Below, in pieces: positions 15,690 to 34,689 of a stretch of DNA of 64,000 bases (positions are counted from its first letter, which is position 1; each line of letters opens with the position of its first letter). The translations under genes were made by a program, and so were the position numbers. The stretch covers positions 696,289 to 760,288 of the forward strand of contig QPGO01000014.1 of assembly GCA_008632985.1 (NCBI GenBank). The letters run 5' to 3'. The notes under the pieces were generated by a model that saw nothing but the letters and a program-made list of their open reading frames with translations, was not told the DNA's origin and did not search any database. The DNA is from Psammoneis japonica. Taxonomy: Eukaryota.

Positions 15690-18480
15690 AATGAAAAAAT
15701 GGCAACAACAACTCTAACAAAGCAGCACTTTCAATGGCGAGCACCACAAGGCTTGACAGTGTCTAGGACACTAAGACCTCAGTGGCTCATGACTCGTTGC
15801 ACTCTCTAGAAAAGAACTTCTCGGCTTTTCCTTTTCCAAAGGTGTTGCCACAATGTTGGCTCATCAACTTTGGCACAAACACCGTTTGGAAACAAACTGG
15901 TGGTTGTGATGGCATCTGACCTGGATTTGTGGGCAATGTGAATTCTCTGCATGATGAGAGCCCTTTCATCAGGTCAATTTCTTCCTCGAGTTCTTGCGTT
16001 CGTTTGACCGAATCGTCACATGGTCGACTCACATTCTCCATTGCATTTCTTCTCGCCATGACTTGAGCCAGTTTCCTTGCTCCCTTCAAGCATTCCAGAA
16101 CCTTGCTCCATGTGTCAGGCAAGGACAATCAAAGTGCATCACAGCATCCTCTGAGATCCAGAATGGCAGCTTCAATGTTCCAAACACTGTGCCCGAGTGC
16201 AGAGTGCCGTGGCTTTGGCTGCAGACAGCGGGTCGATCTCCCCCTCTTTGCCTTGTTTGGTGAGCAAGACATCTTGCAAGTTTAAAAAACTCAGTGGCTG
16301 ATTCAACTCTGTGCTGACATGGTCCTTCATCCAATGTTTGATTGTGGCAACATGACAGCATTGCCCAAACCATTGTCACTGGAAAGCATCCAAACAGAGG
16401 CGCAGATTGAGCATTTGCGCTGCAATTTGAATGTCATTCATTGGGTCTGAAACCAGTGTCAAGGCAGGTTGAAAATCTTGTTTTCCTGCACAAAAAGACT
16501 CTTCTTCAACAATGTCTGATTGGCAATGCTGCTTGTTGGCACAGGGACAAATCATGTCGCACACATCATTGAGACCAGGAGATGCCACAAACTCATCACA
16601 TTGGCATTGGATGCATTTGCACTCTCAAACACTGATGATTCCACCCACTGTTTTTGTTGGCCTCAATTGCTTCTCAGCATCCACCAGAGTCTTTTGATCT
16701 TGTTGCTTGTTTGCCAAAGTGCACTTGGCAGGAGCATGTGCACTTGGCTCATGCTGCCGGCACAGAGATGGTGCTCTTGACAAATCAAAAATGTGCAGTG
16801 ATGTGCAAATGTGGGCTTTGAACCAGTGCCTCTCCATCTCTCGAGGTGTCTTTGTGAATTTCAGTGTTGGATTTTTTGGCTTTTTGTTGATTGTTTTGGC
16901 AAGGTTTGTGTGTGGAGCGGTGGGAAAAAGTGAGGACTGAAATCACCACTGGGCAGAGGATGGACAACAGAGTGTGGCAGCCCTTTGTTGTTCTCACCCT
17001 GCTCATGCACTTTTGGTCAAAATTTTAAAGTCATTTGTCAAAGTCACTGTGACATTTTCTGCATTTTGCTTGTGTCACCAAGATTCAAAATCCATTTCTT
17101 GCCCTTTCTACAAAATGCATTGTTGAGATCTCTCTTCAGCTTGCAGCCATGAGATGTGTCTTCCTGTGGAAAGCTTTCACAATGATGACAGCCACTGCAC
17201 TGCAACCTTCTCCTGCTCTCTTGTCCACAAAGCCACTTCACACTGCATTTCACCCACTTGGGCAGAAATTACGGAAATTGTGGTCACGGAAAAGCACACA
17301 CCAAATCGCCCCCCGCACCTCTTAAGGCAATTGTGTGACATGCAACAGTGAGTCTGACAGCTCCAACACTGAAGGCTGCAATGACACATTTAAAATGTTG
17401 ATGACATGAGCTGATTTTTTTTACCTCCCAATGAGTGTGCCAAAGGAGAGCACATTGGTTTGAAGCTCTGTCATGTTGAACATTCTGATGGCACAAAATG
17501 TGAAAAGTCCCCAACATCTTTTTGCATTCAAACAATGCTCCGCTGCCATGTTGACAGTGTGTGGGTGCAGAAAACTTTACTCCAAACATTGTGGTCACTG
17601 TTTTTAAGCATCCATTTTTGGTTTGGTGAAATGTGCTGGGGCAGAATGAATCTCTGTCAGTGTGCATCTTGATGCATTCACAATCAAATGATGTGCAAAG
17701 CTCATGGCTTGTCCAAGGACACTGTCATTTGCATGTTTTGCTTCATTTGGCAAAAAGAAGTGACACCATTTCTTTGACTCACAAGCTGCCTTTGCTGCCC
17801 GCTCCTCTTCTTTTCTTCCATGAGCATTTTTTCTTCTGTCAAAGTGCCCTTGTGTCTCCATTTTGTTTGGACAAGTGCTTGCTGCTGCAAGGTCACATGA
17901 GCTTGGTTGGTGGGGTTTCATTGCTTCCATGCCAGCTTCTTCAGGAATGCCTCCAGCACCCACTGCATCTGAGCCAGACACTTCACAAAACACCCAAGCT
18001 TGACAAGGTCTCTCTGCCAAACCCCCCAGTGCCTGTTGAACTGCAATCAGCTGTGAAAAGGCACTCTCCTCCATTTCTTTTGATCTTAAATCTTGACTTT
18101 CAAAAGCCAACTTCAGTTTGTTGAACAGATCTGCTTTGCTTCTGGTTGGCCAAGTGGAGTGACCTCTGATGTCAGGTGGTCTTCTTGCTTGCCTGGATTT
18201 GTGAAGTTGGTTGACAAAGCCAATGGAAATGTCTCCAGAGTCTACGTTGACCAAGCACATGGCTCATGCTTTCCACAGTTTTGCAAAAGATTTCTGTGAC
18301 AAGGTGGCTTCTGGGCACTCTTTGGCTGATGATGAGGGGCAAGATGGTGGTGGTCAAGAGGACTCTGTTGACAGAAATGTTTTTGTGAACCAGTTCTTCA
18401 GAAGAAGTTTCTTCTGAAGAACTGGAAAATCAATTAGTTGCTTCAGCAGAAGCTCATGGGGAAAAAAGCTGGATTACAAG
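15690..18480. mobile_element. Degenerate transposon-derived block, TpA/CpG depleted
   Basis: Same compositional signature as the other blocks; broken coding remnants, apparently on the minus strand; family unresolved. Confidence 0.55.
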
Positions 18481-19020
18481 ACAACCTGCTCCGGAGCGCC
18501 GAGGACTCCCACAGCACCGATCTTCTAATGAAGATGCCAACACCAGATTTCTACTGAGACGGTGTTCGACATGTCAGTGGCAGGGAATGTGAAATCGCTC
18601 CCGTTGTTCATCCGTGGCTCAATGAAATATTCCTATTTTGGATTATCCTGTGTTGTGAAATGCTGCTTGGTGTATTTGCAAGATGGACTATTGGCCAGGG
18701 CGAAAGCAGTGTCCACTAACTAAAGCGGCGCTATTTCGTCTTTGAAACAGTAACTTTGATTTTGTTCAGGCATCGTTAGCTCACCATTTCTTTCGTAACG
18801 ATTTTAGGTCGAGCAATCCATGAAGTAGAAACTCTAGCTCTCTACTCTAGAGACAATGTATTGCAACCAAGTAGCACCTTGAAGAAGGAGACGCAATGGA
18901 GAAAGCATCGAATGTGTCTTTTTGAACAACGAAGCTACAAATGTGAATGGAAATTCCAGCAATCAACTACGGAGTCGTTGCCGGAGCACGACCTTGTGCG
19001 TGTAGGGCGCTGAAACCATT

Positions 19021-19686
19021 CTACCTATTGTCCTCATTCATTTCGTCAACAATTGCCATGAACGAAACGACCAAACAAGGATCAATGCCTGGTCCAATCC
19101 TGATTGCCCACTGGTTGCCTTTGGCAATTCCCAAGTTGATCTCCTTCATGTGGGCGCAAGGCTTTCCGTTGCGGGTGAGACGCATCTGACGCAAATCCAC
19201 TACTTTGCCCACGCCATCTGTGAGATATTCAACGCCGTCAAAGGTCTTCATGCTCTTGCGCACAGAAAAGAACTTATCCTTGCACTTGGCCCATTCATAC
19301 AGAGGCCTGCCTTCATGCTTTTGCTCCGAACTTGGTTCTTGTCCTTCTACAAACGGAGTAAAACCGTAAATCTTGAACGTTGTCTCCCACTTCAGATACA
19401 TCTTCAAAATGATCGCGAGAGGTTCGCCAGATTGATTTTGGAGCATCATTCTGTCTCGAATGGTCAAGACTACACCTTTGATGTCTGCCTCAAATGGCTT
19501 CTGATCACCAAAGTAAGTAATACCAAAGCTATCGCCCGACCAGCTTGTCCAGAGCTTCTCCTTCATGACAAGGTGATAAAGTTTGTCTGCAGGCACGTCT
19601 GGATGAAGCACTTTTGGAGGAGCTGGATGGACAAAGTTTAAGTCCTCGTCAGTGGGGATGGGAGTCGAATGTTTAAACATGGTCAA
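19021..19686 (-). CDS. LURP-one-related / Tubby C-terminal-like (scramblase fold) protein
   Basis: 221 aa; MKEKLWTSWSGDSFGI near the N-terminus and IRIGPGIDPCLVVSFMAIVDE at the C-terminus match LURP1/Tub_2 patterns. Confidence 0.75.
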   Translation of the reverse strand: MTMFKHSTPIPTDEDLNFVHPAPPKVLHPDVPADKLYHLVMKEKLWTSWSGDSFGITYFGDQKPFEADIKGVVLTIRDRMMLQNQSGEPLAIILKMYLKWETTFKIYGFTPFVEGQEPSSEQKHEGRPLYEWAKCKDKFFSVRKSMKTFDGVEYLTDGVGKVVDLRQMRLTRNGKPCAHMKEINLGIAKGNQWAIRIGPGIDPCLVVSFMAIVDEMNEDNR

Positions 19687-20074
19687 GTCGTTTAATCGAT
19701 AAAAAACTATTGAAACCAGAAACCAAGTTTACTGCTGCGACAAGTTCGGAAAGATGAAAGCAAGATGAAAGATACGCTTTTTTGACAATAACTTGACAAC
19801 GCCAGCAGTTTTCTTGTTCCGCGACTATTGAAACGAAGTTTATTGCTGCGACAAGGTCGGGAAGATGAAAGATGCAAGCAAGATGCATGAAAGATGAAAG
19901 ATACGGTAGGTCTAGCTCTAGAGTATCGCAGTGCTGTACTTGTGCTGTACGCGCTTTTTTTGACAAAAAACTTGACAACGACGCGCCCGCCGCGCGCACT
20001 TCCAAGTGGTTCTTGTCCCGCGCGAGTCTTCAAACTCATAGCACCGTGTTGTAGAGTAGCCCAGGAGGACCAAG

Positions 20075-20290
20075 GTGTTGACCAGCAAGTCAACCAGCAT
20101 GAAAATTTGCTCTTGCATTGAGAGGAAGCTCATGGACAGGGGTTGAATGATCCTGATGTCCTTTGACCCAAGTGTCTGTTGGTGCAAACTGAGCGATGGT
20201 GAACAAAGTCAAGGCCAGCTGGGTCACAATTGCACTCCAAGGCCTGCTGCAATGGATTGGGACACTTGCACCAGTTGCTGTTGACCCAGG
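20075..20290 (-). mobile_element. RNase H fragment of a non-LTR retrotransposon
   Basis: WVKGHQD...HELPLNARANFHAG*LA resembles the WVKGHQD..N..AD.LA RNase H motif of LINE-like elements. Confidence 0.55.
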
Positions 20291-22116
20291 GTGATTTGAC
20301 AGAGGTGCTGCAGGCCTGTTCCATGTTGAGTGAGTCGTCAAAAAAATTTTGTTCGAGAGAGTCAACTGGGGAGATGGTGGATGCAGCAGCACACAAGTGC
20401 TCTTCATTGGCAAATCGAGCTGAAGTGAGTTTTCTGGCATTGGGGTGGGATGAATGGTGCAAAGTGGGAGGAGCATCATTGACTGAGCTTGAGGAAAAAG
20501 AATCCCAGTTGTCAGAGTCCAAAGAGTCTGCATCAAGGATGGTGGGTGAATCAATGTCAAGAAAATCCTGGATGGTGCCAGCACGTTTGTCGACAGGTGT
20601 GTTGTCACAGTTGGTGAGTTCAGAGTCATTGTTGGAGACCTGACAAATGGGGAGAGCTCCGGAGAATGGGACATGGTCATGCACCAAGAGGATGATTCGA
20701 AGAGTTCATCAAAATGGACATCACACATGACAATCAAATGTTTTGGTCTGATGCCTTCGGGGGGACACACATCAAGCATCCAGCCTGATTGGGTGCAAAA
20801 CCAACATGAATGCCACGAGATCAATGTTGGAGCTGTTGTTTGGTGGTGGTCAGGCGGCTGGTTTCTGGGTTGAGTGATTGACACCTGTCAAAAGTGGCGA
20901 GAAGCCAAAAACGTGAAAATGGCTGATCTTTGGGTGCTTGTTGAAAGCATGAAAGTGAGGTGTAGAGAGAGAGAGAGAGAGAGAGCCATCTTGCAAACGG
21001 GCACCTTTGGCCAGGAGCACATTCAGTGTTGCAATGGCATGGAGGAACAAGTGATGACAAAAATGGGCCAAGAGGCAGGTGTTCATGAGAAGGCAGCAAA
21101 TCACATTCAGTGTGAATTGTCACATCCTTTCACTTGTGCCATTCATTTGTTGGTGACAAGGCACGGCAATCTCATCCTTGATGCCATTGTCAGAACCAAA
21201 AGAAAGGAATTTGTGAGGGAGGAAATGTTGTACAGAGTCAGCTCGAATGAAGTTGACATCCTTCACTTGGCCAACAGCTTGAACTTTGGCCACCCAAGAC
21301 TTGAAAGCCGCAATGATGTTGCTCGTCGTGGGACTCTCAAAGCCACAGATGCTGCAGCAGTGTCCCTTGTGTGCAGCCATGAAGAGATGGTGCAGAAAAG
21401 ATGAGCCGGGGGTGAGAGCAACATTGTGTGGGTTTGGAGTTGTGTCCACAAACACACATGAAAAGTGTGTTCTGGTTCAGTTGGGTCACACTCAACGTGA
21501 TTTTGCTTCCGTGATGCAGCGATGCACATGCTGTCTGAACAGTCAAGCCAAACTTTGCCAATTGTTTCAGCCAAAAGACTTTGAGAGGAACGACAAGCAA
21601 AACATCAAACTGCAAGGTCAAGATCAATGGTGGTGGTCTTTGGGGTAGAGGAGGGTTTGAGAGAATGTGTGTTGGTCTCAACAGCATTGGCATCACTGGG
21701 AGTGGAGTGGTCAGTGGATGCATTGTGGCAAGAGTGCTTGTGACGAAGCATTGGGAAGCTGAAAATGTGTCCATCATCACCAAAATTGAGCTTGGTGATG
21801 TTCGTCATGACATGCACATTGAACAAATCATTGCGGCAAAAGCAGGGACCAAGAACAGATTCCGGTTGAGACTGGGGATGCAACAGACACTTTCAAGGAC
21901 AAGGTTGACAGGGCATCCTTGATCATCTTGGAAATTCAGGGTGATGGAGCTGGCTTTTGCAGCGTGGACAATGGTGCCATTTGCAATCACAACAAGGACA
22001 TGACAATCAATGGGGTTGTCAAGAGAGTTGTGGTGCACAAAATGGGAGGAGGCACCAGAGTCAACAAACCAGCTGCCAATGTTGGAGAGGTCATTGTCGC
22101 ATGGGAGTTGCTGGGG

Positions 22117-22361
22117 TGTTTCAGTCTGCCCGTTGTTGGATTAGCGGGATTACCTCTACGGTGAAAAGCTGCTGCTCTGTGGTGCCAAGGGGGTGTGACG
22201 TGTTTGTGAGTTCGTTTCCTGGAAAGTAAGACTTTGTGCGATGTCTGCGACATTTCTAGGACATTAGAGTATAAGATCGAGAGGTCCACTCGAGGATCCT
22301 CTCACAATTCGAATAGATCATGTTTTGATCATTGATTTATTCTATCGACATGGTTTTAGCA
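22117..22361 (+). repeat. 5' LTR (245 bp)
   Basis: TGTTTCAGTC...TTTTAGCA, direct repeat of 28641-28883. Confidence 0.95.
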
Positions 22362-22395
22362 CTTTGTCAGAGCCAGTCTCCGACCACCTGAAATC

Positions 22396-24018
22396 ATGGC
22401 ATTTGCTGCAGCTCAAACCACATCGTTCTTCAAGGACAACGATCAGATGGGACTGCCCAATGCGACTCATGTGCAGCCAGCGGTTGAGGGTCTTGAGCAT
22501 GTGAATGAACTCACGGACTTCGACGAGGATGGTCTCCAACAGTTGTTCGAGAACCTCAAACGTCCTGGAGGCACTGTTCCGGATCCGAATCCTGGTGCGG
22601 CTGCTGGTGCGGTCATCTGAACCCCAGCATTTGTCACAGGTGCCAAGAGCATGATGCGTCTCAAGGTTGCTCGTCAAGCAGCTCAATTCTACGAGACCGT
22701 CGGTCGCGACTTAACAGCTGCCAACATGCGTTGGAACCCCATCCTCAAGAACTTTCAGGAGGCTTGGAAGGCCCTCAAGGAGCGCAAGGCCAAAGACGAC
22801 CCAGACGTCCCCAGGATCTCCAAGTCTCTACCAATTATGAAGTGGACCGAGGCGTTCCGTGATCACCTTCAGCAAGTGATTGGCAACAGGACAATCCCGT
22901 TGTCCTGCATAACTCGTGAGACGGTCGCGGTTCCAGCAGATGCTCCTGCCTTAGCAGCGAACCAACTGCACTCCAACGAACACGGTTCCCTTGGAGACGA
23001 ATTAGTGGCACGTGCCAGCCACACCCATCCGTTGTTTCGAGAGGATAACGCATCCGTTTATTGTGCACTCAAAGAAGCGACTCGTGGCACCTCCTACGCC
23101 GCTTCGATCAAGCCTTTTCAGCGTAGGAAGGATGGACATGGAGCGTGGGTTGCTCTCACTGCTCAACATGCAGGCGAAGACAAGTGGGCGGCCGAACTCA
23201 AGAAGCAGGAAGAGTTCATCCACAATCGCAAGTGGAAGGCTCAGTCGAATTTCTCTCTTGATCGGTTCATTGCGCAGCACCGTAATGCCTTTGTCTCGAT
23301 GCAACAATGTGCGGAGTACGTCACGCACCAACTTCCGAACGAATGTTCTCGGGTCACGCATTTGTTGGATGCAATCGAAACCTCCGATGCACCCCTACAA
23401 GCCGCAATGGCCCTAGTCCGCAATGATGCCGGGCCGAACGGCAAACGTAGCGTCTTCGAGGCGGCTGCGGCGTGCCTTCTTCCCTGTGACCCCATGGCCA
23501 AGAAACGCGCCGCAAAACGCCCTCATGCCAAAGTGTCGGGCATTGACTCCAGCACCATCAAATCTGGCATCGGCAATTCTGGGGTGGAACTTCGCTGCCA
23601 CACTCAGTCTGAGTACAAGAAGCTCACCTCTGAGCAGAAGGTAGAACTCAAGGAATGGCATGCAAAACAAGGGGCCGGATTGCAAAAGAAGAAGATGGAA
23701 GGCAAGAACCTGGTGGAGGGTCGCGGTCACAAGAACATCAAGAAGATGATCTCAGAAGCAGTGGCCTCTGAGCTAGCTTCTCGTGATAAACAAGATCAGC
23801 AACCCAGTGCCTCTGACCCCGATGATGCCCAAGCCGGTGCCTGCCTGCTGTCGTTGGCACAGGCAGCATCTGCGTTGGCTCCTGCTGCATCGCAACCCCT
23901 GCTGCCACCACCTCCTCCGGCGCCATCTGCTCCGCCTGCCCAAGCCTCTTCTGTTCAATTTAAGGCTCCGGCTGTCATGCTTCAATCCATTCTGCGGCGC
24001 GCTGGTGCCAAGAATTGA
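22396..24018 (+). pseudogene. gag: Copia gag with an in-frame TGA at 22618-22620
   Basis: ORFs 22396-22620 and 22651-24018 share a frame; motifs GNRTIPLSCITRE, DGHGAWVAL and FSLDRFIAQHRNAF resemble CoDi gag. Confidence 0.85.
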
Positions 24019-24084
24019 AATGAAGGGACGGCGCTGCATTCCCACGTCTCCTCGCTTGAGGGGAGAAAGTGCGCCTTTTGTGCC

Positions 24085-27000
24085 ATGGAATTGCAGTCGT
24101 CGATTCCCAATCGCTCTGTTTTAAAATTTGTCGATCGTCACATGGTCTCCGATGTCACAATGGATGCAAGTGACGAGACCATGAGCAGGAACGAGATGCA
24201 CACCGAATTGGATTCGCATGCCAACATGGTTGTTGTCGGCAGAGGATCCCACGTCTTGAACAACACTGGTCGCACCGCCCAAGTCAGCCCGTTCAATCCA
24301 GAATGCAAATCGATGAAGGACGCAAGGATCATTGATGCGCTGCTGGCACACGACTGCCCGCATTTGTTGAAAACACATTTGTTGGTCCTTCACAATGCCT
24401 TGCATGTCCCGGCAATGGATCGCAACCTTCTGCCACCCTTTGTGCTGCGAGAAGCAGGGGTGACAGTCAACGACGTTCCCAAGATGCAGATCAGGGGACA
24501 AGAACCAACGGAGGATGACCATGCCTTGACACTCACGGATGTGAAGGTGCGGATTCCTCTGTCATTGTGGGGAGCATTTTCCTGCTTCCCAACCCGTTGT
24601 CCGACACTCCAGGAGATGAGAGACACCGAGGATGCACTGGTGCTCACTCCGTCTGGACACACCTGGAATCCTCACTCAGACTCCTGTGCGCGCAATGAAG
24701 AGAGCATGTTGGACTGGGAGGGGAACATGTCAGACAAACGAGACCGGGTGAAAATCCTGGTGGAGGATCTCCTGGACAAAGATGAAGAGATCTGACTCTC
24801 CTTGACCATGTCGAGTGTCGAGATGCGTTTGATTGATCACAACATGACGTTGGTTGACCATTTCGAAGTGCGGGATGACTTGAGTGGGACTCGTGAAACC
24901 ATTCGTGAGGTGGACAGTTCTCATGCTGTTCTGTGTGATCTCTCTGTCACTCTCGACCCCGTTGCACTTGTGGAGAACCTTCAGGATCGCCGCAATGTTG
25001 GAGTTTTTGCCGCTTCAGTTGGGTCCACGACAGTGGGACACGAAGATGACTCGGGTCAAGATGACAATGTCGACTTTGACATTTTCGAGGATGTCCAACT
25101 TGAAGACATTGTTGACGACCTTGTGGAGTGCTTCGAGTCAGACCCCGAGGTCAATGTTGGTGGGACCACGGCATCAAAGTCCAAGGGTGCATCCCCAGAG
25201 CATCTATCTAAGATCTGGCGGATGAGCACAAAGGATGCCGAGCGGACGATTGACAACACCACCCAACCACTGCGTCGCTCTGAGGACCCTGCTCTTCTTT
25301 GTGGACACCTTCTTTGCAAGTGAGAAGGCTGGAAAATCCACAAGGGGGCACTCGTGCATGCAACTGTTTGTTGCGGACAAAGGATTTGTCCATGTGGTTC
25401 CGATGCGTGCTCGATCAGAAATCCCTCAGGCTCTCAAAATGTTCACGAAAGAAGTGGGTGCACCAGAAGCGATCACATGTGACAGTGACTCGGCACAGAA
25501 GTCTGATGAAGTTCGACAATTCCTTCACTCTGTCGGCACCAGTCTACGTTTGCTGGAGGAAGGAACGCCATGGTCGAACCGTGCTGAATTGCACATTGGC
25601 CTGCTCAAGGAGGCCGTCCGGAAGGATGTGAAGGCCTCGCTGTGCCCTCTCCCATTCTGGGACTGCTGTTTTGAACGGCGAGCTTGGATCAACAACATGA
25701 CGGCTCACAACCCATTCCAACTTGAGGGGAGAAAGCCACACTTCTCCGCAACAGGGGAGGAGGGTGACATCTCAAACCTTGCCCAGTTTGGTTGGTGCGA
25801 ATGGTGTTACTTCCGCGAACACACTGACCCCTTCCCATTCAACCGAGAGGTCCTGGGTTGTGCACTGGGTCCGGCAAAAGGGGAGGGCAACAAGATGGCT
25901 CAGTGGGTGCTGAAGGGAAATGGCAACGTCGTCCCCAGGCGGTCCGTTCGACACTTGACAGCCACCGAACTCAACAGTGACACTGAGAAGTGCAAGCGCA
26001 ACATTTTTGATCAGTGTGTTGAGTCACGTTGGGGTTCTGCCACTCACCCTGTGTCGTCCACGGGAAAGCAGTGCACTCCGCATGGAGACATCAACGAGAA
26101 GCCCCGGGTCCTTCCAGAGTTTGATGATCCCGTGGATGCTGCAGGGAACGCTGCCGACCCCGTTCCACTGTGCGACAAGCTGATCCACGCCAAGGTTGCC
26201 CTTCCTCAGGGTGACAAGCTGCACAATGCCAAGGTCATTGGTCGCTCTGTGGATCCTGAAGGTCGCACCATGGGCTCTTACAATGACAACCCCATTGTGA
26301 ACACGCTTGTGTACAAAGTCAAGTTTCCTGACGGGGAGGTGAAGGAGCATGCGGCCAATGTAATCGCCAAGAATCTACTCTCTCAGGTCAACTCCAAAGG
26401 CTGCACACTCAACGTTTTTGACAGTGTCCTCGATTTTGCCAAGGATGACACCGCATTGACCAAGGACAACATGTGTGCCAAGGTTGGCAAACGGTCTTGT
26501 TTGCGTAAAACGACGTGCGGCTGGAAGTTCCTTGCGCTGTGGAAAGACGGATCTGAGTCGTGGGTTTCCTTGAAGGACATGAAGGAGTCCCATCCAGTGG
26601 AAATGGCCGAATTTGCCAAAGCGAGAGGCACAGATGATGAACCGGCTTTTCGATGGTGGACACCGCACACACTCCGGAAGCGTGATTGCATCATGTCAGC
26701 GGTCACGGCTCGTGTGCGGCGTGTCACTCACAAGCATGGAGTCAAGCTGCCCAACACTGTCAAGGAGGCACTCGAGCTTGACCGACAGAATGGTGACAAC
26801 CTGTGGGCAATGGCAATTGAGAAGGAGATGCGTGACGCGGGCCTTGCCTTTGAAACACTTGATGACGACACACCAACTCCTGTCGGTTGGTCCAAGCAAT
26901 CGGGTCACCTCATCTTTGATGTCAAGATGACCATGGCAAGGAAGGCTTGGTGGGTTCTAGATGGACACAAGACTTCCAATCCAGAGGGCTCAACGCACGC

Positions 27001-28450
27001 AGGTGTGGTTTTGCGTGAAAGTGTGCAAATTGCTCTAACACATGCTGCTTTGAACGACGTTGATGTCATGGTGGCGGATGTTCAGAATGCATGTCTGCAG
27101 GCCCCGTTGTCACAGAAGCATTGCATCACATGTGGCGCCAAGTTTGGCATCGAGAACGTGGGCAAGCGTGCCCTTGTTCGTCGTGCATTGTGTGGAGGCA
27201 AGTCAGCAGGACAAGACTTCTGGAATCATCTACAAGCCTGCATGTTGCATGTCGGATTCAAGCCTTGCAGAGCAGACCCTGATGTTTGGATGCGTGAAGC
27301 GCTCAAGGCGGATGGCAATGAGCATTGGGAGCACGTCCTGTTGCATGCGGACGATGTGTTGTGTGTCTCCAACAATGCTGAAAGGATTCTGCGGGAGGAA
27401 ATTGGCAAGCACTTTCTGCTGAAGGAGTCCTCAACAGGTCCTCCTAGCTTGCATCTGGGAGGTCATCTTTGCAGGGTGGAGCTTGAGAGTGGGACAAAGG
27501 CGTGGGCCTTCAGCTCTTTGCAATGGTCTCAGGCATCCGTGAAGAACGTAGAGACTCACCTGCTGGAGAAGGGAACGAAGCTGCCGTCCAAGGCTTCCAC
27601 CTCTCTCAGTGGCTCGCATCGTCCGGAGGTTGACACGACACCCAAACTGCAACCAGCGGAGGCAGCTCATCATCAATTGCTCATTGGTGTCTTGCATTGG
27701 ATGGTGGAGCTCGGTCGCGTTGATGTTTGTCTGGAAGTGTCCATGATGTCCTCTTGCCTTGCTCTGCCTCGAGAGGGACATCTTGCCCAGGTGCACCATG
27801 TCTTCACCCACCTCAAGAAGCATCACAATACGGAGATGGTGTTTGACCCCACCCATCCGGACATTGACGAAGAGTTGTTTGCACGTCGCGATTGGACTGC
27901 CTCCAAATTCGGTTTGGCCATGAAGGAGGAGATGCCTGCTGACATGCTCCAGGCCAGGGGATCAGGCATGGTCGTACGAGCCTTTGTCGATGCGGACCAT
28001 GCGGGTGACTCCATCACTCGTCGGTCCCGCACTGGATTTTTGATCCATCTGAATTTGGCGCCCGTCCATTGGATGTCGAAGAAGCAGACGAGCATCGAGA
28101 CGAGCTTGTTTGGATCAGAGTTTGCCAGCATGAAGCAGTGCATGGAGCACATCTGTGGGCTCCACTGCAAGCTTCGAATGATGGGGATCCCGGTCGTCGG
28201 ACCGGCCCATGTTCATGGAGACAACCAGTCTGTCCTGGCAAACACCTCTGTCCCCAACTCAACGTTGAAGAAGAAATGACACAGTCTGGCGTGCCACTTT
28301 GTTTGTGAGCATGCGGCCCGGGATGAGTGGCAAACAGCGCACGTCAATGCGCACCTCAATCCCAGCAATCTGTTGACCAAGGCGCTCCCTTCAGGGGAGA
28401 AGCGCAGTTGGTTCGTTAGAATGACATTGCACTGTCTTGGAGGGAAGGTG
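24085..28450 (+). pseudogene. pol: Copia pol (protease, integrase, RT, RNase H) with stops, a frameshift near 25295 and Tyr-to-Cys/His substitutions
   Basis: ELDSHANMVVVG (PR); TPWSNRAE (IN); ADVQNACLQAP, RALCGGKSAG, LLHADD (RT); FVDADHAGD, GSEF, GDNQSV, NPSNLLTK (RH). Confidence 0.92.
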
Positions 28451-28640
28451 GATTGGGCCGTGTCGGCTGAACCACCTGCCAGTGCGGAGGGTTTTGTTGG
28501 AGTTCCCTGCCGATGGAGTGGTTTTGTTTGGATTTTCCACTTGATGGGTGTTTGTGTGCAGTTTGCCATCGCATGGTGTTGACGAATCCCTTTGTTGGCA
28601 ATCTAGTTTGATGACACAATCAAGTCTAGATTGAGGGGAG

Positions 28641-28883
28641 TGTTTCAGTCTGCCTGTTGTTGGATTAGCGGGATTACCTCTACGGTGAAAAGCTGCTGCT
28701 CTGCAGTGCCAAGGGGGTGAGACATGTTTGTGAGTTCGTTTCCTGGAAAGTAAGACTTTGTGCGATGTCTACGACATTTCTAGGACATTAGCATAAGATC
28801 GAGAGGTCCACTCGAGGATCCTCTCACAATTCGAATAGATCACGTTTTGTTTGTTGATTTATTCTGTCGACACAGTTTTAGCA
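28641..28883 (+). repeat. 3' LTR (243 bp)
   Basis: Direct repeat of 22117-22361, preceded by a polypurine tract. Confidence 0.95.
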
Positions 28884-30399
28884 GGGGTCAGCATTGGGTG
28901 GCATCCTTGGCCATGCGTGCAACTTGACAGAGTGCTTTGTTGGTGACTTGATCAAAGAGGGGGAGCAAAGGTTGCTCTAGAGCTCCAGTGCTGAGCTCTG
29001 AGACGACAGAAGAGTTCGTTGATGGCAGTGCTTCAAGAGGTGTGAGGGCATGCGTGTCATGCAGGTCCAATGGAAGTGTCGGTGCCATGGTGGTCAGAGT
29101 GATGGCAGATCCAACAGGGTGTGCCTCATGAGAGGGCAAAGGAAAATGTCAGCGTCCTGGGGATCAGAGAATCTGGTGCAGGGCCAGCAGCATCAATGTG
29201 TGCATGCTGGAAGGCAGGGGCATGTTTGGGAAGATACAAAATTGTCATGGTGGAGGACAAGTCCATGCTGGAGTCACAGTTGTGACATGCAAGAGGCGGG
29301 GGACTGGTGTTGTCAGAGTCAATGGATTGAGCATCATCAACGACATGTTCAGTGTCAGAATCATCAAGCAGTTCCTGCAGGGACAGGGTTGGCATGGATC
29401 CATGAGTAGAAAGTGAAAAACAACAATCAAATGGGTCGGAGCTGAAAAATGAATCTTTTGAGGAGTCATCACAGGGCAACAGGTGTCATGATTTGAGTGA
29501 TGGGACAGAGTTGGACAAGGATGAATCACAGGAGAGCATGTCGTCATCACCAGTGCAAGCAGCACAAAAAACAATTTTGTTGTCTGTGGTTGGACATTGT
29601 TGCAGTGGGTCTTGGTGGTGTGACAGCAAGAGCAGTTTGTTTGTCTGCCTGCTGTAGCTCAGGGCATTGAGGATGAAGGTGCCCCTTTTTCTTGCAGTGA
29701 AAACAGGTGACTTTGCTCAAATCCCAAGTGGGCTTCTTGTCTGAAGGTGGCTTGGTTGTGCCATTCTTCAAGTCTTGAAGGCGGGAGCGACATTCAGTGG
29801 CGCCATGGTTCCATTTGCCACAACACAGTTGCAGCTCCTCAAGTGCCAAAATTTTCCAGAACATGATGCAATGTCCAACATGTCTGACTGGTGGGTCTTG
29901 TCCAAGTGTGTCCACAGCAAGGCACAGAGGGCTTTGTCAGCTGGTTCCAAAAGTGAACGGAGGGGGGGGGGGGGCAGATTGAAAATTGTCAAGGACACCA
30001 TTGAAGTCCAGAAAAGATGCAAAGGTTCTGCGCAAGTCATTCAGAAATGAGCAAAATTTTCGTCTTCTTGTGTGTGGATTCTGATTGTGATGCAGCATTC
30101 CAAGATTTGTGTGGGATGCATGCTTCATGAGTGAGTTGGCCAACAATTCCAAAGAGTGCTCTGTTGCACCAGTGGTGCAATTGAGATGCTTGGATGTGAT
30201 GGGTGAGTCGTCGGATGAAGAGCATCCTGATGGCAAGGAGTTGGGTGTCTGTCTTGGCAAGAGAGCAAGGCGGAACAGAAGTTTCATGTAGAGAGACTCG
30301 GCCTCTTGTGTCATGTCCTTGAAGCGGTCAAGTGCAAGGGTGCCAGGCTCACAAGCCGGGTGTTGGCAGAGGAGACTTTCAAAAGATGACTTGGCCAAG

Positions 30400-33040
30400 C
30401 CGACAATGTAATGCAGCTAAGCGGAGCATTTGTTTGCATGACAGAAAAACGGAATGAGAGCCCATTGGACATCAAAAAGGGCACCAATGGTCACGAGTTG
30501 AACTTGTGTGTTAATGTCGCTGTCCAAAGAGTCAGTGACATCGTGTGTGACTGAAGTTGTCAATGCCAGTGGAGGTGACATTTCAGCAGCTGGTGTTTGT
30601 GGCAGAGAAGCAAGTGCAGCAGTGAGTGCATCATCCATTTCGGTTGAGATGGGAGTGACAGCATGCATGAAACAGAGGATTCTCAGACTTGGAAGAAGAT
30701 GGGTCAACGTGTGACAGTGCTGGGGTTGCCTGATCCTCAGGAGAGGAAAGAAGCAGGAATTCTTCAGGAGGACCCAGCAACATGGCTGCGGCAGACACGA
30801 GTTTGTCCATGGGGAGTGTGGACCCCCCTTTCGTTGGAGCATCATTGTCATTGGAATGAACAGTCTCAACTGTTGCGCAGATAAAATGGGGTGACAAGGG
30901 ATGCTTGGAAGATTGATGTCCATTGTTTTCACATGTCCTTGGTTGGCCCTTGAAGTGGCAATCAACCTCTGGATTGGGGAAAGGCTTGGAATGGGTCATG
31001 CAATGACAATGGCGGCAGGAACGCAATGATCGGATTCCTGGTCAGGTGTCATCTGGATGGATTGCTTCAACTTGGAGCAATGACAATGTTTGCGGGGTTG
31101 TCTTCCAGAAATGTGAGCAGAAGTGGTGCTGGAGGCTGGCTCAGAAGGTTTCTGAATGCGGTTGTGCAAAGAGCCCAGATCAACCTCCAGAATGTCCAAA
31201 GAGTCATCAATGGATGTCAATTGGTCGTGGATCACACAGTCACAGACATTGTGCTTGGGGTCAGAAAAATCTTTTTTGCCATTGTCAACCTGTTCTAATG
31301 AAGTGTCAAGATGAGCATGAGAGTGCTGCAAGACACAACAGTTGGATTAGATCTTGATGGTCTCTATCTGGAGATGATCTGTGCAAAACTGGGCTTGGGC
31401 AAGGCACTCTTGGAGGGCACAGTGGATGCCAGCTTTGACTTCAGCAAGGTGAAGTTCCTCAGGAGTGGGCAAAGGAGAAGCCAGAGTGCACTTGACAGAG
31501 GCAATGGAGCGATTGATCACGCATTTGTTGTGACGTTGGATGGTCTTGGTGTGCTTGCAAGATGGCTGAATGGATCTGGCAGGGGTCTTGGGCAAAGACA
31601 CATCTTTGCCATTGTGCAGACCATGGACAGACAAGGGGGTGTGATGCTCAAAGTCCAGGTTGTTGGCTGATGTGTCAATGGTGCAATGGATGGTGCAACA
31701 AGAGCAATGAGTGGAGACCTTGTTGTGCTGCAAATTTAGGGTGGGTGTGCTCCTTGGTGGGTCGCTCATGCAATGGGTGCAATGATGACATGAAGAGCAC
31801 AAACCAGCATGCTGGACAACAGAGCCAGTGTCAACATTGTGACAATGGTCATGAGGATCAGCCATGGGGACATCATTGACAGAGCATCCGTGGACCTGAA
31901 AAAAACATCTTGCAAAGCAAGTGCGTGCAATGACGGCTTGCAAGAGGAAGCTTTGCGAGACGCACAACTGGCGCTCCGCTTGAAAGAAATGGTCTCGTCA
32001 GACCAAACCGGAAGTGTTGCAACCCTGACAGAAAAAGGGCAAGAGAAGGGTGCTCACCTGAAGGCAACTGAAGTGATCAAATCTGCGCACTGACAGGAGA
32101 GAGCAAGCCAAGGCCAGAAACATCCTGCAGCAAAGTGTGTTCTGGATGTTGTGAGAGATTCTGAGCCAGTCTCAGAAGAATCAAAGCCAGGATGGAAAAT
32201 GATGGATTCTGACAGGTTGATGAAACTCCATGGATTGAAGATACAATGTCTTCAGTCATGAGGTTCCAACATCAGAAGGGAACATGGAATCCCTGACAAA
32301 GGAGGGGTCGCAGGTGATGGGGGAATGTTGCTCAGCAGGACACCTGCTGAGGTCTTGTTGTTGTCACAGAAAGCTTCAATGTCAGTGCAGCAGTGCATGG
32401 TTCTTGCAATGTTCAAAAAGATGGAACAGAAAACAGATCAAAGACAGGACTCCTCTGCAGGCTCCCGCGTGGAAGGACAAAGTTTTTCGGCCAAAGACCG
32501 GCCCAGCAGCACAGTCAACTGGGGGTTTCCCATCAAGTGTGATTGTGCATCCCCAAAGGTCACACTGTCTTTGAGGACTGAATCATTGCTGCACCACACA
32601 CAAGGCACAACTCACCTGCAATCTGCTGGGATCCAGCCAAGTGTGCCTCATGCTCCAAAGCTGCACCCAAGGAGCTTGGGCTTGTGGTGGTGGTGCACAA
32701 ACATTTTACCTGGCTGTGCCACACCCCTGATGCAGCCCATGCTGAGTGCTCTCATCCAGTGCCAGTCATCTGCTCCTCCTGCCAAGAAGACTCACAAGAC
32801 CCAGCCATGCCAGCTGGGGCTCTCTGGGCATGGGAGTGCCCCAGCAGCTCAGGCTCTTCTTGCTGCCCACACCACCACCAGCAGCACCAGGTGTGCAGGA
32901 GCCAGTGCAGCGAAAGCAGCCAGCCCAGCCACCATTTCCCCTCTCCTCATGACAAAAGCATGGTGCTTCTTTCAAAATATCTTGATTCGCAAAAAGCTTC
33001 CTGAAAATCTGGGAGGGTGAGGCGGGTCGAAGGCAGAGAG
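30400..33040. mobile_element. Degenerate repeat-derived sequence, TpA/CpG depleted (may be the 5' part of the outer Copia)
   Basis: Compositional signature only. Confidence 0.5.
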
Positions 33041-33385
33041 AGAAACAGCTACTCTAGCTTCTACTAGAGAGTAGCCTGCCTCGCTCTGCGGTGATCCGGA
33101 ACAATCGTGACTGAATCATCAGTTATGTAAACTCATGACTCAGTCTCAAACGCAAAACGCAGCGGGTGGGCAGTGCCACCATGACACGTACCGTAACACT
33201 TTACAGCATTGCCGATTGCCGTTGTGTCATCAATCATTCATCAGAGCATCTTGCGTCAGCAAGAACGACCCATCCTCTGTGTAAACGAAACATGTCACAA
33301 ATAATTCACACCGTTAAGGTCATAAACTGAGAAAAGAAAACATCTCTCTCTCTCTCTCTCTCTTCCTCTCTCACACACCCGAAAC

Positions 33386-34612
33386 ATGTCGAAGAACAAC
33401 TGCAAGCACCGACGTCCCCGCCCTGCGCCTTCACTCGTGGTTATTTCCACCGTTCTTCTTCTAGTCTTGCATTCCGAAGCATTTGTTCCACACCATCAAG
33501 CTCCGAACCTAAGACCGTGGGGGAGTGAAAGAGTTTTCTATTCAGAGGCAATTGCACAACAAAATCAAGACACACCCTCACCTGAACAAGACGACGAGGT
33601 TGTTGCTGCGGTACGAGCTCCGCTCAAGTTTTTTGGTCCGTATCCAACCCTTGCTTTACGATTCCCGAACTTGGCCACAACGGCTCAACGAGCTAAAAAT
33701 GTCACGGGTGTCAGCCTAGATTTTATTGTAGATACGGCTGCCAATGTCAACACAATCAATGGAGCAGTCGCGCAAGAATTAGGCCTCGAGCAACAAGGAC
33801 AAGCTCTTCCAGGTGTCGGTTCCGCGGGGGCAATTCAAGGTGGAGACACGTACGTATTGGGTGATGCGGAATTGGAAGGAGTACTTGATGAAAATGATGA
33901 GCCCTTTGTGTTCATGACTAATTTGACTGCCTCGGCGTTGCCAGTAGCCAATCCTGCTACCGCCGGATTGTTGAGCATGGCGTTTCTTCAGTCCTTTGAG
34001 GGCGGTATAGAATTTTGTTGGGGGGGCAGCCATGGTGATTACGAAGCGAAGCCACCATCTCTAACTTTTTATGGCGATTCTGTTGAACAAATTCTTCAAG
34101 ATCGGACTCGCGTATCATTTGATCGAGCTCCAGTCACTCAACTGCCAATTGTGACCATCAATGTTAACGGAGTTTCCATGCCCGCCTTGTTGGATACGGG
34201 AAGTCCAGTGACGGTTCTCAATGCACAAGCCGCAAAGCAAGCTGGTGTTGAAGCCACCACTCTTCCCGCAGTGGAAAAATCAGGGAATCCCTTTTCCAGC
34301 TTTGCCAATCGTTTCCAACAAGCCCAAGCTGCGTCTCGCGGGGACGTCTTAACAATAATGGGAACTGACGGCAAACCAACCAATCTTGTAAAGTCTGCAG
34401 TACCTCCAACTGTATCGCTGGAGGCGAGTACGAATGATGGTAGCAATGTCGGCTTCGGGGAGACTCCTGTGTACGTTGGTGATTTACCTGGATTGGAGGC
34501 GCTCAAGGGACTGGGTGTCAATGCGCCACCGGCAGTAGTGTTGGGAATGGACATCCTGCGACAACGGCCAAAAATGCTGCTACGTGCTCAACAGAATGAA
34601 GTTTGGTTTTAG
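33386..34612 (+). CDS. Aspartyl protease with two retropepsin-like domains, probably plastid-targeted
   Basis: FIVDTAAN and ALLDTGS catalytic motifs, VVLGMDIL; hydrophobic signal ending SEA-FVP, like the diatom ASAFAP motif. Confidence 0.8.
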   Translation: MSKNNCKHRRPRPAPSLVVISTVLLLVLHSEAFVPHHQAPNLRPWGSERVFYSEAIAQQNQDTPSPEQDDEVVAAVRAPLKFFGPYPTLALRFPNLATTAQRAKNVTGVSLDFIVDTAANVNTINGAVAQELGLEQQGQALPGVGSAGAIQGGDTYVLGDAELEGVLDENDEPFVFMTNLTASALPVANPATAGLLSMAFLQSFEGGIEFCWGGSHGDYEAKPPSLTFYGDSVEQILQDRTRVSFDRAPVTQLPIVTINVNGVSMPALLDTGSPVTVLNAQAAKQAGVEATTLPAVEKSGNPFSSFANRFQQAQAASRGDVLTIMGTDGKPTNLVKSAVPPTVSLEASTNDGSNVGFGETPVYVGDLPGLEALKGLGVNAPPAVVLGMDILRQRPKMLLRAQQNEVWF

Positions 34613-34689
34613 AAAAAAGATCATTTAGCTGTTGCAATAAGATGTGGGTATTTTATGTTGTGTTAAGGTTACCAAACTAAGAGGAAAAT

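Follow-up and report, generated by a model that had tools for sequence, protein, structure and literature searches.

TpA-specific transitions in a Ty1/Copia retrotransposon and neighbouring DNA of the diatom Psammoneis japonica

Why should the polyprotein of a Copia-type retrotransposon be almost free of tyrosine? The question is raised by a 64,000-nucleotide stretch of contig QPGO01000014.1 from the diatom Psammoneis japonica, referred to here as the window, for which the original prediction proposed that Tyr had given way to Cys or His through A>G changes within TpA on one strand or the other. The Tyr counts on which it was based could be reproduced (0 of 258 residues in the protease (PR) ORF and 3 of 1017 in the pol ORF, as delimited here), and every Cys/His-bearing peptide string that it quoted is present in the ORF translations. 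Only 18 TpA are observed between positions 24085 and 28450, against 235 expected from base composition and 186–280 in 1000 mononucleotide shuffles of the same interval. Observed/expected (O/E) ratios over this interval are 0.08 for TpA, 0.70 for CpG, and 1.51 for TpG/CpA, and the codons TAT, ATA, and TTA are absent from the pol ORF. TpA loss from the element (∼90%) has progressed much further than CpG loss (∼30%); the highest GC content of the window (0.53–0.54) coincides exactly with the element, as expected if TpA loss precedes CpG loss. Depletion was originally placed at 24085–28450, where it is indeed found, but its extent is greater, taking in all of the internal element from 22362 and ∼59% of the window.

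The element is a Ty1/Copia LTR retrotransposon by its LTR pair, its PR–IN–RT–RH order, and the RVT_2 domain of its relatives (Table 1). It is collinear with a 1516-aa relative, P0002, residues 30–438 of which align to 24106–25296 in tblastn searches, with pol frameshifted relative to PR near 25296. Composition of the 5′ LTR was computed on 22113–22361, and the PBS-like stretch in the leader is presumably the counterpart of the initiator-tRNA PBS of copia-type elements. The gag-like ORF had no gag match in Pfam, and its depletion is only half that of pol. The RVT_2 match of pol itself is weak (E 1.3e-5, below the cut-off), as expected after hypermutation, whereas relatives carry PF07727. The proposed conversion of the RT motif from YTDD to HADD agrees with the aligned relatives, in which the first position is Tyr in 70 of 70 and the second Thr in 45 of 70 (Y-T-D-D), and the codons are as originally read. 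With Tyr lost, YxDD changed to HADD, and the PBS-like stretch apparently altered, it is probable that hypermutation killed this element. No second copy was found within the 64-kb window, either by tblastn with the polyproteins of 4 and then 40 relatives or by self-BLAST. Apart from the LTR pair, self-BLAST of the window returned nothing but an unrelated tandem repeat at 44.3–44.9 kb. A contig joining 22117 to 29656 was considered as an empty insertion site and rejected because the joint is not clean.

Table 1. Coordinates of features in the window, with strand and supporting observations
Feature	Position	Strand	Observations
TpA/CpG-depleted block, origin without assignment	7900–10500	.	composition; no Pfam match
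TpA/CpG-depleted block, origin without assignment	15751–18500	.	composition; no Pfam match
Older, more decayed Copia-type element, PR side	20001–22116	-	TpA O/E ∼0.05, CpG ∼0.3
5′ LTR	22117–22361	+	TG...CA; self-BLAST and alignment to 28641–28883, 93% identity; TpA O/E ∼0.67, 12 TpA kept
Leader, with PBS-like stretch 22363–22374	22362–22620	+	0 TpA in 259 bp
gag-like ORF, 465 aa	22621–24018	+	TpA O/E 0.30, 21 TpA; named by position
PR-like ORF, 0 Tyr	24019–24795	+	TpA O/E 0.02
IN-RT-RNaseH pol ORF, 1017 aa	25226–28279	+	3 Tyr; TpA O/E 0.08–0.09
RT catalytic motif H-A-D-D (CAT GCG GAC GAT)	27344–27355	+	relatives Y-T/V/C-D-D
In-frame TGA stop, cuts polyprotein	28277–28279	+	homology runs on to 28432
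Polypurine-tract-like run	28633–28640	+	adjoins 3′ LTR; read from sequence, putative function
3′ LTR	28641–28883	+	TpA O/E ∼0.61, 11 TpA kept
Older element, gag side	28884–33000	-	TpA O/E 0.06–0.15, CpG 0.2–0.45
TpA/CpG-depleted block	34751–41500	.	TpA O/E 0.07–0.13, CpG 0.06–0.44, TpG/CpA up to 1.85
TpA/CpG-depleted block, continuing past window end	50751–64000	.	500-bp normal island 53501–54000

Relatives of the element could themselves have carried Cys or His at these sites, a concern raised at the outset. Among the relatives listed, however, all 120 contain 3.2–4.9% Tyr, with none below 1.5%. GC-matched intact relatives have ∼45 TpA/kb, compared with 4.3/kb in the element. Across the homologous RT region, eight related metagenome loci gave TpA O/E ratios of 0.31–0.84, and L005 (0.31) is the sole hint of a TpA process among nine loci. 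Straight translation of L005 contains 18 stops, so the Tyr test is uninformative there.

To polarise the changes, the majority residue of 70 relatives was taken at 768 conserved columns, giving 138 unambiguous single-base changes, of which 33 are transversions. T>C changes number 33, with 30 followed by a 3′ A, and A>G changes number 31, with 26 preceded by a 5′ T. TpA context thus holds for 56 of 64 A:T>G:C changes against a background of 0.204 (p = 1.7e-30), in line with the proposed route from Tyr to Cys or His and with the anticipated excess of TA>TG/CA over other A>G changes. A second context is seen among the G:C>A:T changes, 32 of 41 of which lie at CpG (G>A, 28 changes, 23 after C; C>T, 13 changes, 9 before G). 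The 36 columns with conserved Tyr now read His in 24, Cys in 7, Tyr in 3, and another residue in 2; at symmetric RTAY sites the ratio of His to Cys outcomes is 15:4, and ATA-Ile columns read Thr in 4 and Met in 0. Strand bias across the whole element was rejected as unproven, since the Tyr codons favor His but the codon-boundary TpAs disagree, with 21 sense A>G changes versus ∼5–18 T>C estimated from the relatives' own codon ratios. Strand balance of the product trinucleotides is confounded by differing baselines and, because TpA is palindromic, A>G cannot be distinguished by sequence alone from T>C on the opposite strand.

Bases flanking the dinucleotide also matter. Survival of TpA in depleted relative to normal blocks is 0.015 for ATAC/GTAT, 0.038 for GTAC, 0.30 for CTAA/TTAG, and 0.69 for TTAA, and the four-base context effect is strong (class test, p = 4e-22). 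RTAY is therefore the hottest context and has been almost erased, with TTAA nearly immune; an effect of the −2 base on the changed strand and one of the +1 base on the other strand are not separable here.

The two LTRs, each ∼245 bp, stand out as islands of near-normal TpA content (O/E 0.61–0.67) with depleted DNA on both flanks. The step at the LTR end is razor-sharp, the last TpA lying at 22357 and the next at 22690. The LTRs differ from each other by 12 events, comprising 3 single changes of TpA type, 3 single changes of CpG type, 3 TG-versus-CA doubles, 2 transversions, and 1 indel. No transition between the LTRs falls outside YpR. These differences show that changes occur after integration and that integrated DNA is a substrate for at least part of the process. 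The LTRs also bear the four-base imprint, with the RTAY class making up 1 of their 23 TpA versus 29% in normal blocks (Fisher p = 0.008), and a TATA-like stretch is kept in the 5′ LTR. Their sparing runs against a simple model in which the silenced domain is mutated and against uniform in-place models, neither of which predicts it. Since the LTR dose is far below that of the 6.3-kb interior, targeting is not simply of a whole silenced domain.

Across the window, TpA O/E is bimodal, with at most 4 TpA in 152 of 256 bins of 250 bp. Contiguous depleted blocks have TpA O/E ratios of 0.04–0.2 and TpG/CpA ratios of 1.5–1.98, with CpG O/E down to 0.04–0.3 in old blocks, and their edges are sharp, being resolved to ≤250 bp. 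The directional, context-dependent changes are restricted to sharply bounded blocks. Host genes (melibiase-like, DnaJ, GT92, and Med4) lie in normal blocks. The element itself sits inside an older Copia-type element on the opposite strand, into which it inserted; the older element gave a Pol_BBD match at 21808–22140 (minus strand, E 5e-10), and a CCHC knuckle can be read from the translation of the ORF at 29550–29936, which had no Pfam match. Pfam searches of the 93 ORFs of at least 110 aa in the other depleted blocks gave this one Pol_BBD match and left 92 without a match, and a second scan, of 23 ORFs of at least 200 aa, gave no match in depleted DNA outside the element. With only 1 of 93 ORFs recognisably TE-derived, the status of most depleted blocks as repeats is presumptive. 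Not everything TE-like is affected, as an intact DDE_1 transposase ORF (47406–49226) and an aspartyl-protease ORF (33326–34609) are found in normal blocks. No deaminase was found by Pfam among the ORFs of the 64-kb window.

If modified bases of heterochromatin had been miscalled from TA to TG/CA in a long-read assembly, a similar spectrum might arise in silico. The sequencing platforms of the assembly and of public run X1 are not on record, and X1 is possibly derived from the sample used for the assembly; its contigs reproduce the sequence, as a check on raw data would ask, but do not count as independent. A contig from X1 covering 26557–28237 has 3 differences in 1681 bp at a depth of 56, and at 25713 the window has CA where 6 other contigs of the run have TA. 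The run contains many diverged related contigs, 229 of 395 matching contigs being <90% identical. Against miscalling, the k-mer contigs of X1 reach 315 kb at a depth of ∼55–70 with ≥99% match, which noisy long reads would presumably not yield. Nor would miscalling account for the frameshift, the stop, and the 33 transversions, for the survival of TTAA sites where RTAY sites are lost, or for LTR copies that differ as TA versus TG at single sites, and in the alga Bigelowiella natans, according to the accessible part of the report discussed below, Illumina data gave the same spectrum. An artefact is accordingly very improbable. Contigs of another run, X2, whose kind can only be guessed, cover only normal blocks.

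Among known systems, repeat-induced point mutation (RIP) as known from Neurospora and other fungi is similar in its dinucleotide-specific transitions, missense-riddled elements, sharp edges, and sparing of genes. RIP, which is carried out by a DNMT-like enzyme, runs the opposite way, however, in that C>T at CpA creates TpA, whereas the changes here remove TpA and yield CpA and TpG. RIP is triggered by duplications that exceed a length threshold, and the lower dose in the 245-bp LTRs than in the 6.3-kb interior would be compatible with one. Decay of 5-methylcytosine is also evident in parallel, with 23 of the 28 G>A and 9 of the 13 C>T changes at CpG, but it can neither remove TpA nor account for the 56 TpA changes; the earlier view that neither RIP nor 5mC deamination explains the pattern is therefore retained. 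The process may resemble ADAR/ADAT and APOBEC3 enzymes in using deamination for restriction. An A that comes after U is the substrate of ADAR and of tRNA A34 deaminases (U33–A34), but the ADAR and APOBEC3 systems work on RNA or on minus-strand cDNA, leaving a footprint on one strand, in contrast to the changes on both strands seen here (26 versus 30), some of them postintegration. Simple attribution to ADAT2 is weakened by the accessible text on the amphioxus enzyme, the sole ADAT shown to deaminate A in DNA, which prefers GAA rather than TpA (PMC10354150).

The closest counterpart comes from the chlorarachniophyte B. natans, for which a recent preprint (Mettrop et al., bioRxiv 10.64898/2026.01.13.699255, April 2026) describes A>G/T>C hypermutation that strikes only TpA in integrated DNA of NCLDV and virophage origin. 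As far as the preprint text available here goes, two hypermutable regions had 231 mutations in mutation accumulation (MA) lines, 230 of them A>G or T>C, all A>G/T>C changes in the two regions fell on TpA, and de novo rates were ∼1e-7 to 1e-6 per site per generation and varied episodically from line to line. The same text describes the NCLDV target as single-copy, reports enrichment of RT and DDE domains among low-TpA coding sequences, and proposes a defence role and an adenine deaminase. The statement that no described system has this spectrum has thus been overtaken, since the preprint measured it de novo; the original interpretation stands as regards TpA>TpG/CpA transitions, a dead Copia element, and spared genes, and is conjectural as regards a link to silencing and repetition as such as the trigger, the B. 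natans NCLDV target being single-copy. The likeness extends, within that text, to an identical spectrum (TpA>TpG on one strand and TpA>CpA on its complement) and to TpA depletion with CpA/TpG gain in clustered windows. Confinement to foreign or mobile DNA, described for B. natans, is seen here for the Copia element and the older Copia-type element around it, with genes normal, and is presumptive for the other depleted blocks, where 92 of 93 ORFs had no Pfam match. The two cases differ in host (Stramenopila versus Rhizaria), in target (an LTR retrotransposon versus integrated NCLDV/virophage), and in depth of depletion (O/E 0.02–0.1 here versus 0.45 for the B. natans NCLDV region, with a cluster cut-off of ≤0.43). 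CpG decay accompanies TpA loss here and is not mentioned in the B. natans main text, which also gives the dinucleotide only, in contrast to the hot RTAY, cold TTAA, and LTR sparing found here. Rates in B. natans were measured de novo, whereas the diatom case is known from its evolutionary footprint alone. Beyond B. natans, our literature search returned no report of a TpA signature in a diatom or other eukaryote, and none is reported in the accessible part of a MA study of Phaeodactylum tricornutum. The diatom signature is real and probably a further instance of the just-described kind of TpA hypermutation, which had been reported once before, in an unrelated alga.

Several rival explanations were weighed. 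An adenine deaminase might edit RNA and/or minus-strand cDNA before integration in the manner of APOBEC3G, the LTRs escaping because they are single-stranded only briefly; this would suit their near-normal composition, the steps exactly at the LTR/internal junctions, the excess of Tyr>His (minus-strand A>G) over Tyr>Cys, and the Thr outcomes at ATA-Ile columns. Against it, both strands are affected, sense A>G at codon boundaries is at least as common as T>C, and the LTR–LTR differences arose after integration. Moreover, there is no monotonic gradient, because the leader next to the PBS, expected to be the first part to become double-stranded, has no TpA while gag keeps 21, and the B. natans target is, in the accessible text, integrated, nonretroviral DNA. 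Editing before integration is therefore improbable. Equally improbable is a thymine lesion, in which TET/JBP-type hydroxylation at TpA in silenced DNA would give 5-hydroxymethyluracil (5hmU) or a derivative that is miscopied or misrepaired to C. Such a lesion would draw on the palindromic nature of TpA, by which A>G and opposite-strand T>C look alike, on the 28:7 lead of sense T>C in Tyr and ATA codons showing both outcomes, and on the enrichment of dinoflagellate 5hmU at TpA and TpC; yet 5hmU:A pairs are, to our knowledge, not strongly mutagenic, and the window offers no clue to base modification.

A variant of the preferred explanation, and one that accounts for the LTR islands, is that all copies of a nonautonomous lineage were mutated uniformly and then mobilised in trans, with selection keeping the cis-acting LTR and some of 5′ gag. 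The lesser depletion of LTR and gag than of pol, the TATA-like stretch in the 5′ LTR, and the many diverged contigs of X1 are in its favor; the leader, also cis-acting, is nonetheless without any TpA, the PBS-like stretch looks altered, and the window has no second copy in which shared and private changes could be compared. We regard such a lineage as unlikely. That TpA was removed without a mutator, through GC-biased gene conversion or through selective pressure on composition or codon usage, is hardly credible: TpA loss does give a net increase in GC, but the A:T>G:C changes are concentrated at TpA, the same DNA shows GC>AT at CpG, the catalytic Tyr of RT was destroyed, and the block edges are sharp.

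The reading preferred here is that this diatom probably has a context-specific TpA>TpG/CpA process that acts on mobile or silenced DNA and spares adjacent host genes. The A:T>G:C transition would occur at TpA on one strand or the other, most likely by deamination of adenine to hypoxanthine, which would be read as G at the next replication, with ordinary, slower decay of methylated CpG running alongside. Together, the two would drive old repeats to O/E ratios of ∼0.05 for TpA, ∼0.1 for CpG, and ∼1.9 for TpG/CpA. A hotspot of four bases is what a DNA-modifying enzyme typically shows and suggests that the process is enzymatic; by analogy, it may be of the same kind as the live mutation in B. natans, and its role is plausibly genome defence. 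Target choice could depend on a length or homology threshold, on an RNA guide, or on selection for cis-acting LTRs in a nonautonomous lineage, all of which are possible. More tentatively, and with the balance tilting against it, diatoms and chlorarachniophytes might share an ancient guided DNA-editing defence whose enzyme has an R-T-A-Y hotspot and whose targets are recognised through small RNA, homology, or length and not solely by chromatin domain. If so, this would explain how a 245-bp LTR escapes beside a saturated 6-kb interior, and the process would outpace CpG decay and be a main reason that old repeats of these genomes turn into unrecognisable TG/CA-rich DNA.

Targeted hypermutation as a defence in eukaryotes was previously known as a cytosine-based phenomenon, exemplified by RIP and APOBEC. 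A saturated footprint in a diatom would mean that the TpA process is not peculiar to a single species and may extend widely across the SAR clade. Both the hotspot of four bases and the sparing of LTRs set concrete limits on what the enzyme can be and on how targets are recognised, and the mechanism would become testable where genetic tools for diatoms exist. A natural DNA adenine-editing enzyme with a defined context would also be of interest for base-editor engineering. Hypermutated copies lose TAA and TAG stops, yield long spurious ORFs, and go undetected by Pfam and BLAST, and the process would thus shape the evolution of repeats, the GC content, and the annotation of TEs in one of the major primary producers of the ocean.

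The hypermutated DNA belongs to a Ty1/Copia-type LTR retrotransposon, the young element, whose parts are listed in the table with other features of the window. A protein search (8000 candidates scored) returned 1620 relatives of the element protein, the best at 69% identity, and a 1516-aa relative could be aligned collinearly over 24106-25296 and 25295-28432; because this match falls into two pieces, the polyprotein must be broken, by one frameshift and one in-frame TGA (28277-28279). The RVT_2 match of the element itself is weak (E 1.3e-5, under the Pfam cut-off), and PF07727 was found alone in 119 of the 120 relatives listed, the remaining one adding PF00665. The young element is nested in an older, more decayed Copia-type element, in which a Pol_BBD match and, read from the translation, a CCHC knuckle can be seen. 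The sequences flanking the young element (TGGGG at 22112-22116, GGGGT at 28884-28888) have in common no more than GGGG as a 4-bp direct repeat, whereas Ty1/Copia insertion would be expected to leave a clean target-site duplication of 5 bp.

Coordinates of the young element and of other features in the window
Feature	Position	Strand	Remarks
Ty1/Copia-type LTR retrotransposon (young element)		+	6.8 kb; from LTR pair and ORF order
LTR pair	22117-22361 and 28641-28883	+	93% identity; TG...CA ends
Leader with PBS-like stretch	directly 3' of 5' LTR	+	
gag-like ORF	22621-24018	+	
PR-like ORF	24019-24795	+	
IN-RT-RNaseH (pol) ORF	25226-28279	+	1017 aa
Older element, Pol_BBD match	21808-22140	-	
Older element, ORF with CCHC knuckle	29550-29936	-	
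Depleted blocks besides young element	7.9-10.5, 15.75-18.5, 20-22.1, 29-33, 34.75-41.5, 50.75-64 kb		
GT92 host gene	12886-15414		
Normal islands within depleted DNA	18501-20000 and 53501-54000		normal TpA and CpG
Aspartyl-protease ORF	33326-34609	+	428 aa; in normal-TpA island 33001-34750
Coiled-coil-like ORF	42580-43470	+	Lys/Ala/Glu-rich; internal repeats
Tandem repeat	44290-44943		~190-bp unit; 82-86% identity
DDE_1 ORF	47406-49226	-	607 aa, intact; pogo/Tigger-type transposase
J-domain-like ORF	49230-50369		adjoins DDE_1 ORF

As originally predicted, tyrosine is nearly absent from the element, with 3 residues in the 1017 aa of pol and none in the 258 aa of the PR ORF, and the codons TAT, ATA, and TTA do not occur in pol. 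Across 24085-28450, 18 TpA dinucleotides were observed against 235 expected (minimum of 1000 shuffles, 186), giving observed/expected (O/E) ratios of 0.08 for TpA, 0.70 for CpG, and 1.51 for TpG/CpA. The relatives do not carry Cys or His in place of the missing residues: Tyr makes up 3.2-4.9% of all 120 listed. When the element was aligned by MAFFT with 70 relatives of at least 1300 aa, 36 columns had Tyr in at least 60% of sequences, and at these the element has His in 24, Cys in 7, Tyr in 3, and Phe and Trp in 1 each. The RT motif is H-A-D-D (CAT GCG GAC GAT, 27344-27355), exactly as claimed, where relatives have Y (70/70)-T (45/70)/V/C-D-D. TpA density is 4.3/kb in the element versus ~45/kb in GC-matched intact relatives, and eight metagenome loci with related sequence, matched over 572-1584 bp, have TpA O/E of 0.31-0.84 in the homologous RT region.

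Two metagenome contigs with related Copia loci deserve mention. A degenerate relative on L005 (962-2246; 56% identity, GC 0.52), with O/E of 0.31 for TpA and 1.66 for TpG and a Tyr content made uninformative by frameshifts, may represent partial TpA hypermutation in a different marine organism. The relative on L006 (2344-3917) has O/E of 0.00-0.01 for CpG and 0.40-0.47 for TpA; CpG decay is complete there and TpA loss is short of saturation, which indicates that in other organisms the two processes can be uncoupled.

Changes were polarised using single-base, unambiguous amino-acid differences from the majority residue of the relatives. Of the 768 conserved columns, 568 showed no change and 138 were usable; the change was ambiguous in 12, and at least two changes were required in 50. 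Usable changes were T>C in 33 cases (followed by A in 30), A>G in 31 (preceded by T in 26), G>A in 28 (preceded by C in 23), C>T in 13 (followed by G in 9), and transversions in 33, to which YpR context does not apply. The predicted excess of TpA>TpG/CpA is evident, with 56 of the 64 A:T>G:C changes at TpA (p=1.7e-30, against a background of 20% of A's preceded by T in intact relatives), and ordinary CpG decay has gone on in parallel. Neither the residues of the relatives nor the polarised spectrum speaks against the original prediction, clearly so in both cases.

The ratio of Tyr>His to Tyr>Cys is 24:7 overall (p=0.003) and 15:4 if only symmetric RTAY sites are counted (p=0.02). TpAs at codon boundaries show 21 A>G changes on the sense strand, at least as many as T>C, whose number was estimated at ~5-18 with the relatives' codon ratios and at 5-30 over the whole range tried, and the polarised TpA changes divide into 26 A>G and 30 T>C. 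We conclude that a consistent strand bias is absent, despite the Tyr asymmetry.

Flanking bases strongly govern TpA loss. Survival of strand-collapsed tetranucleotides, taken as TpA density in depleted relative to normal blocks (172 TpA in 35.2 kb versus 916 in 24.9 kb), was 0.015 for ATAC/GTAT, 0.038 for GTAC, 0.047 for ATAG, 0.06 for ATAT, 0.10 for ATAA, 0.12 for CTAC, 0.13 for GTAA, 0.17 for CTAG, 0.30 for CTAA/TTAG, and 0.69 for TTAA (context class test, p=4e-22). In an additive per-strand model, which fits roughly, the base at position -2 from the A ranks as purine first (G and A about level), C next, and T far last; 45 of the 56 polarised TpA changes have a purine at -2. In the survival data, this preference could be read equally as an effect of a pyrimidine at +1 on the other strand.

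The window as a whole is bimodal in TpA, and depletion extends beyond the young element. Depleted blocks have O/E of 0.04-0.2 for TpA, 0.04-0.45 for CpG, and 1.6-1.98 for TpG/CpA, whereas host-gene blocks have ~0.5-0.65 for TpA and ~0.9-1.0 for CpG; at most 4 TpA are present in 152 of 256 250-bp bins, and block edges are sharp. Low CpG together with normal TpA is found in no block of the window. In the young element, ~90% of TpA but only ~30% of CpG is gone, and its GC content is the maximum of the window (0.53-0.54), which makes TpA loss the faster of the two processes. TAA/TAG density is 3.6/kb in depleted versus 16.3/kb in normal blocks, a loss that leaves long meaningless ORFs in every frame of depleted DNA; between 22 and 31 kb, 40 overlapping ORFs of at least 100 aa lie on both strands. 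The open 1017-aa frame is no evidence of element activity, and in depleted DNA gene callers will call false proteins while Pfam misses true ones. Among 93 ORFs from depleted DNA outside the young element, a single one has a Pfam match, and the repeat status of these blocks we mostly infer.

Named relatives of the GT92 host gene are all diatoms (Nitzschia 50% identity, Cylindrotheca 46%, Fragilariopsis 44%, Thalassiosira ~41-43%), which identifies the window as diatom DNA, in line with the original guess. The DDE_1 ORF, normal in TpA and CpG, is either domesticated, very recent, or unrecognised by the TpA process. The aspartyl-protease ORF, with two retroviral-type stretches (Asp_protease_2, gag-asp_proteas), lies between two depleted blocks and could represent a host gene of the DDI1 type or a TE protease that has been domesticated. 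The longer normal island is covered by contigs of X2, a second sequencing run otherwise found only on host genes at 11-15 kb; the shorter (500 bp) holds 22 TpA and 35 CpG. The coiled-coil-like ORF and the tandem repeat lie in normal DNA with strong A>T skew.

Contigs of a public sequencing run reproduce the window over 26557-28237 (3 differences in 1681 bp) and 15322-20453 (2 differences), and their depth (~55-70), length (up to 315 kb), and agreement argue against a long-read base-calling artefact, although this support is not independent, as the run may come from the assembly's own sample. A second 1681-bp contig of the first span shows 200 differences at depth 28, against depth 56 for its partner, and the pair looks like a graph bubble between the window copy and another copy or allele that has diverged by 12%. 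Across 11-31 kb, 395 contigs of the run match with at least 80% identity, and for 229 of these identity is below 90%. All four transitions dominate their differences (252-324 each, versus 42-69 per transversion type), as independent YpR changes in separate copies would give. Among the 40 of 1554 variable sites listed, four inside the element have several contigs: 25713 (CA in the window versus TA in six contigs), two of CpG type, and one of neither.

Within the element, the LTRs have TpA O/E of 0.67 and 0.61, compared with 0.30 for gag, 0.16 for the tail, 0.02-0.09 for PR-pol, and 0.0 for the leader. Stretches free of TpA run between 21647 and 22141 and between 22358 and 22689. Only 1 of the 23 TpA in the LTRs is in RTAY, versus 29% in normal DNA (p=0.008). 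Of the 12 LTR-LTR differences, 3 are TpA-type singles, 3 are CpG-type singles, and 3 are TG-versus-CA doubles, where a single ancestral YpR changed in both copies; the others are 2 transversions and 1 indel, and every transition is at YpR. The two LTRs are identical when an element integrates, and these changes therefore arose on chromosomal DNA. Editing before integration would account for the excess of Tyr>His over Tyr>Cys and for the LTR islands, but is contradicted by these later LTR changes, by changes on both strands, and by the fully depleted leader. The LTR islands also argue against plain domain-wide action; they are compatible with a threshold of length or homology, with guidance by RNA, or with selection on cis-acting LTR sequence while the lineage is mobilised in trans.

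The original prediction knew of no described system with this spectrum, a statement now outdated by a preprint on Bigelowiella natans (bioRxiv, 14 April 2026; 10.64898/2026.01.13.699255). According to its accessible text, 231 of 302 nuclear mutations in 15 mutation-accumulation lines fell in integrated NCLDV (186 kb) and virophage (25 kb) DNA, 230 of the 231 being A>G or T>C, all placed on TpA by its authors, at a rate of ~6e-7 and in some lines only. In that genome, windows poor in TpA and rich in CpA+TpG form 124 clusters, RT and DDE domains are enriched in low-TpA CDS, and defence through adenine deamination is proposed, with an ADAT2 homologue named. That text does not treat trinucleotide context, CpG, or diatoms, whereas the diatom window offers a four-base context and CpG decay. 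Our literature search found the TpA signature reported for neither diatoms nor eukaryotes other than B. natans. The accessible part of a mutation-accumulation paper on P. tricornutum describes mutation biased towards GC>AT, the mutable contexts being CG, CC, and TG. Amphioxus ADAT2, the precedent for A deamination in DNA, is described in the excerpt available as preferring A within GAA and C within TCG (PMC10354150), and so lends no context support to an ADAT2 attribution.

We regard it as probable that mobile or silenced sequence in chromosomal DNA is edited at TpA, most intensely at RTAY, by a host process of the same kind as that in B. natans, and the RTAY hotspot suggests enzymatic action. 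Adenine deamination is the leading guess for the lesion chemistry, its probability being about one half at most; a lesion on the thymine of TpA would give the same sequence outcome. The observation first made is confirmed and is stronger than claimed; its interpretation finds partial support, and such a spectrum has meanwhile been described. This would be a diatom case of a process described only in one 2026 preprint (10.64898/2026.01.13.699255, as far as its accessible text goes), to whose anatomy it adds the four-base context, the sparing of LTRs, and TpA loss ahead of CpG decay.
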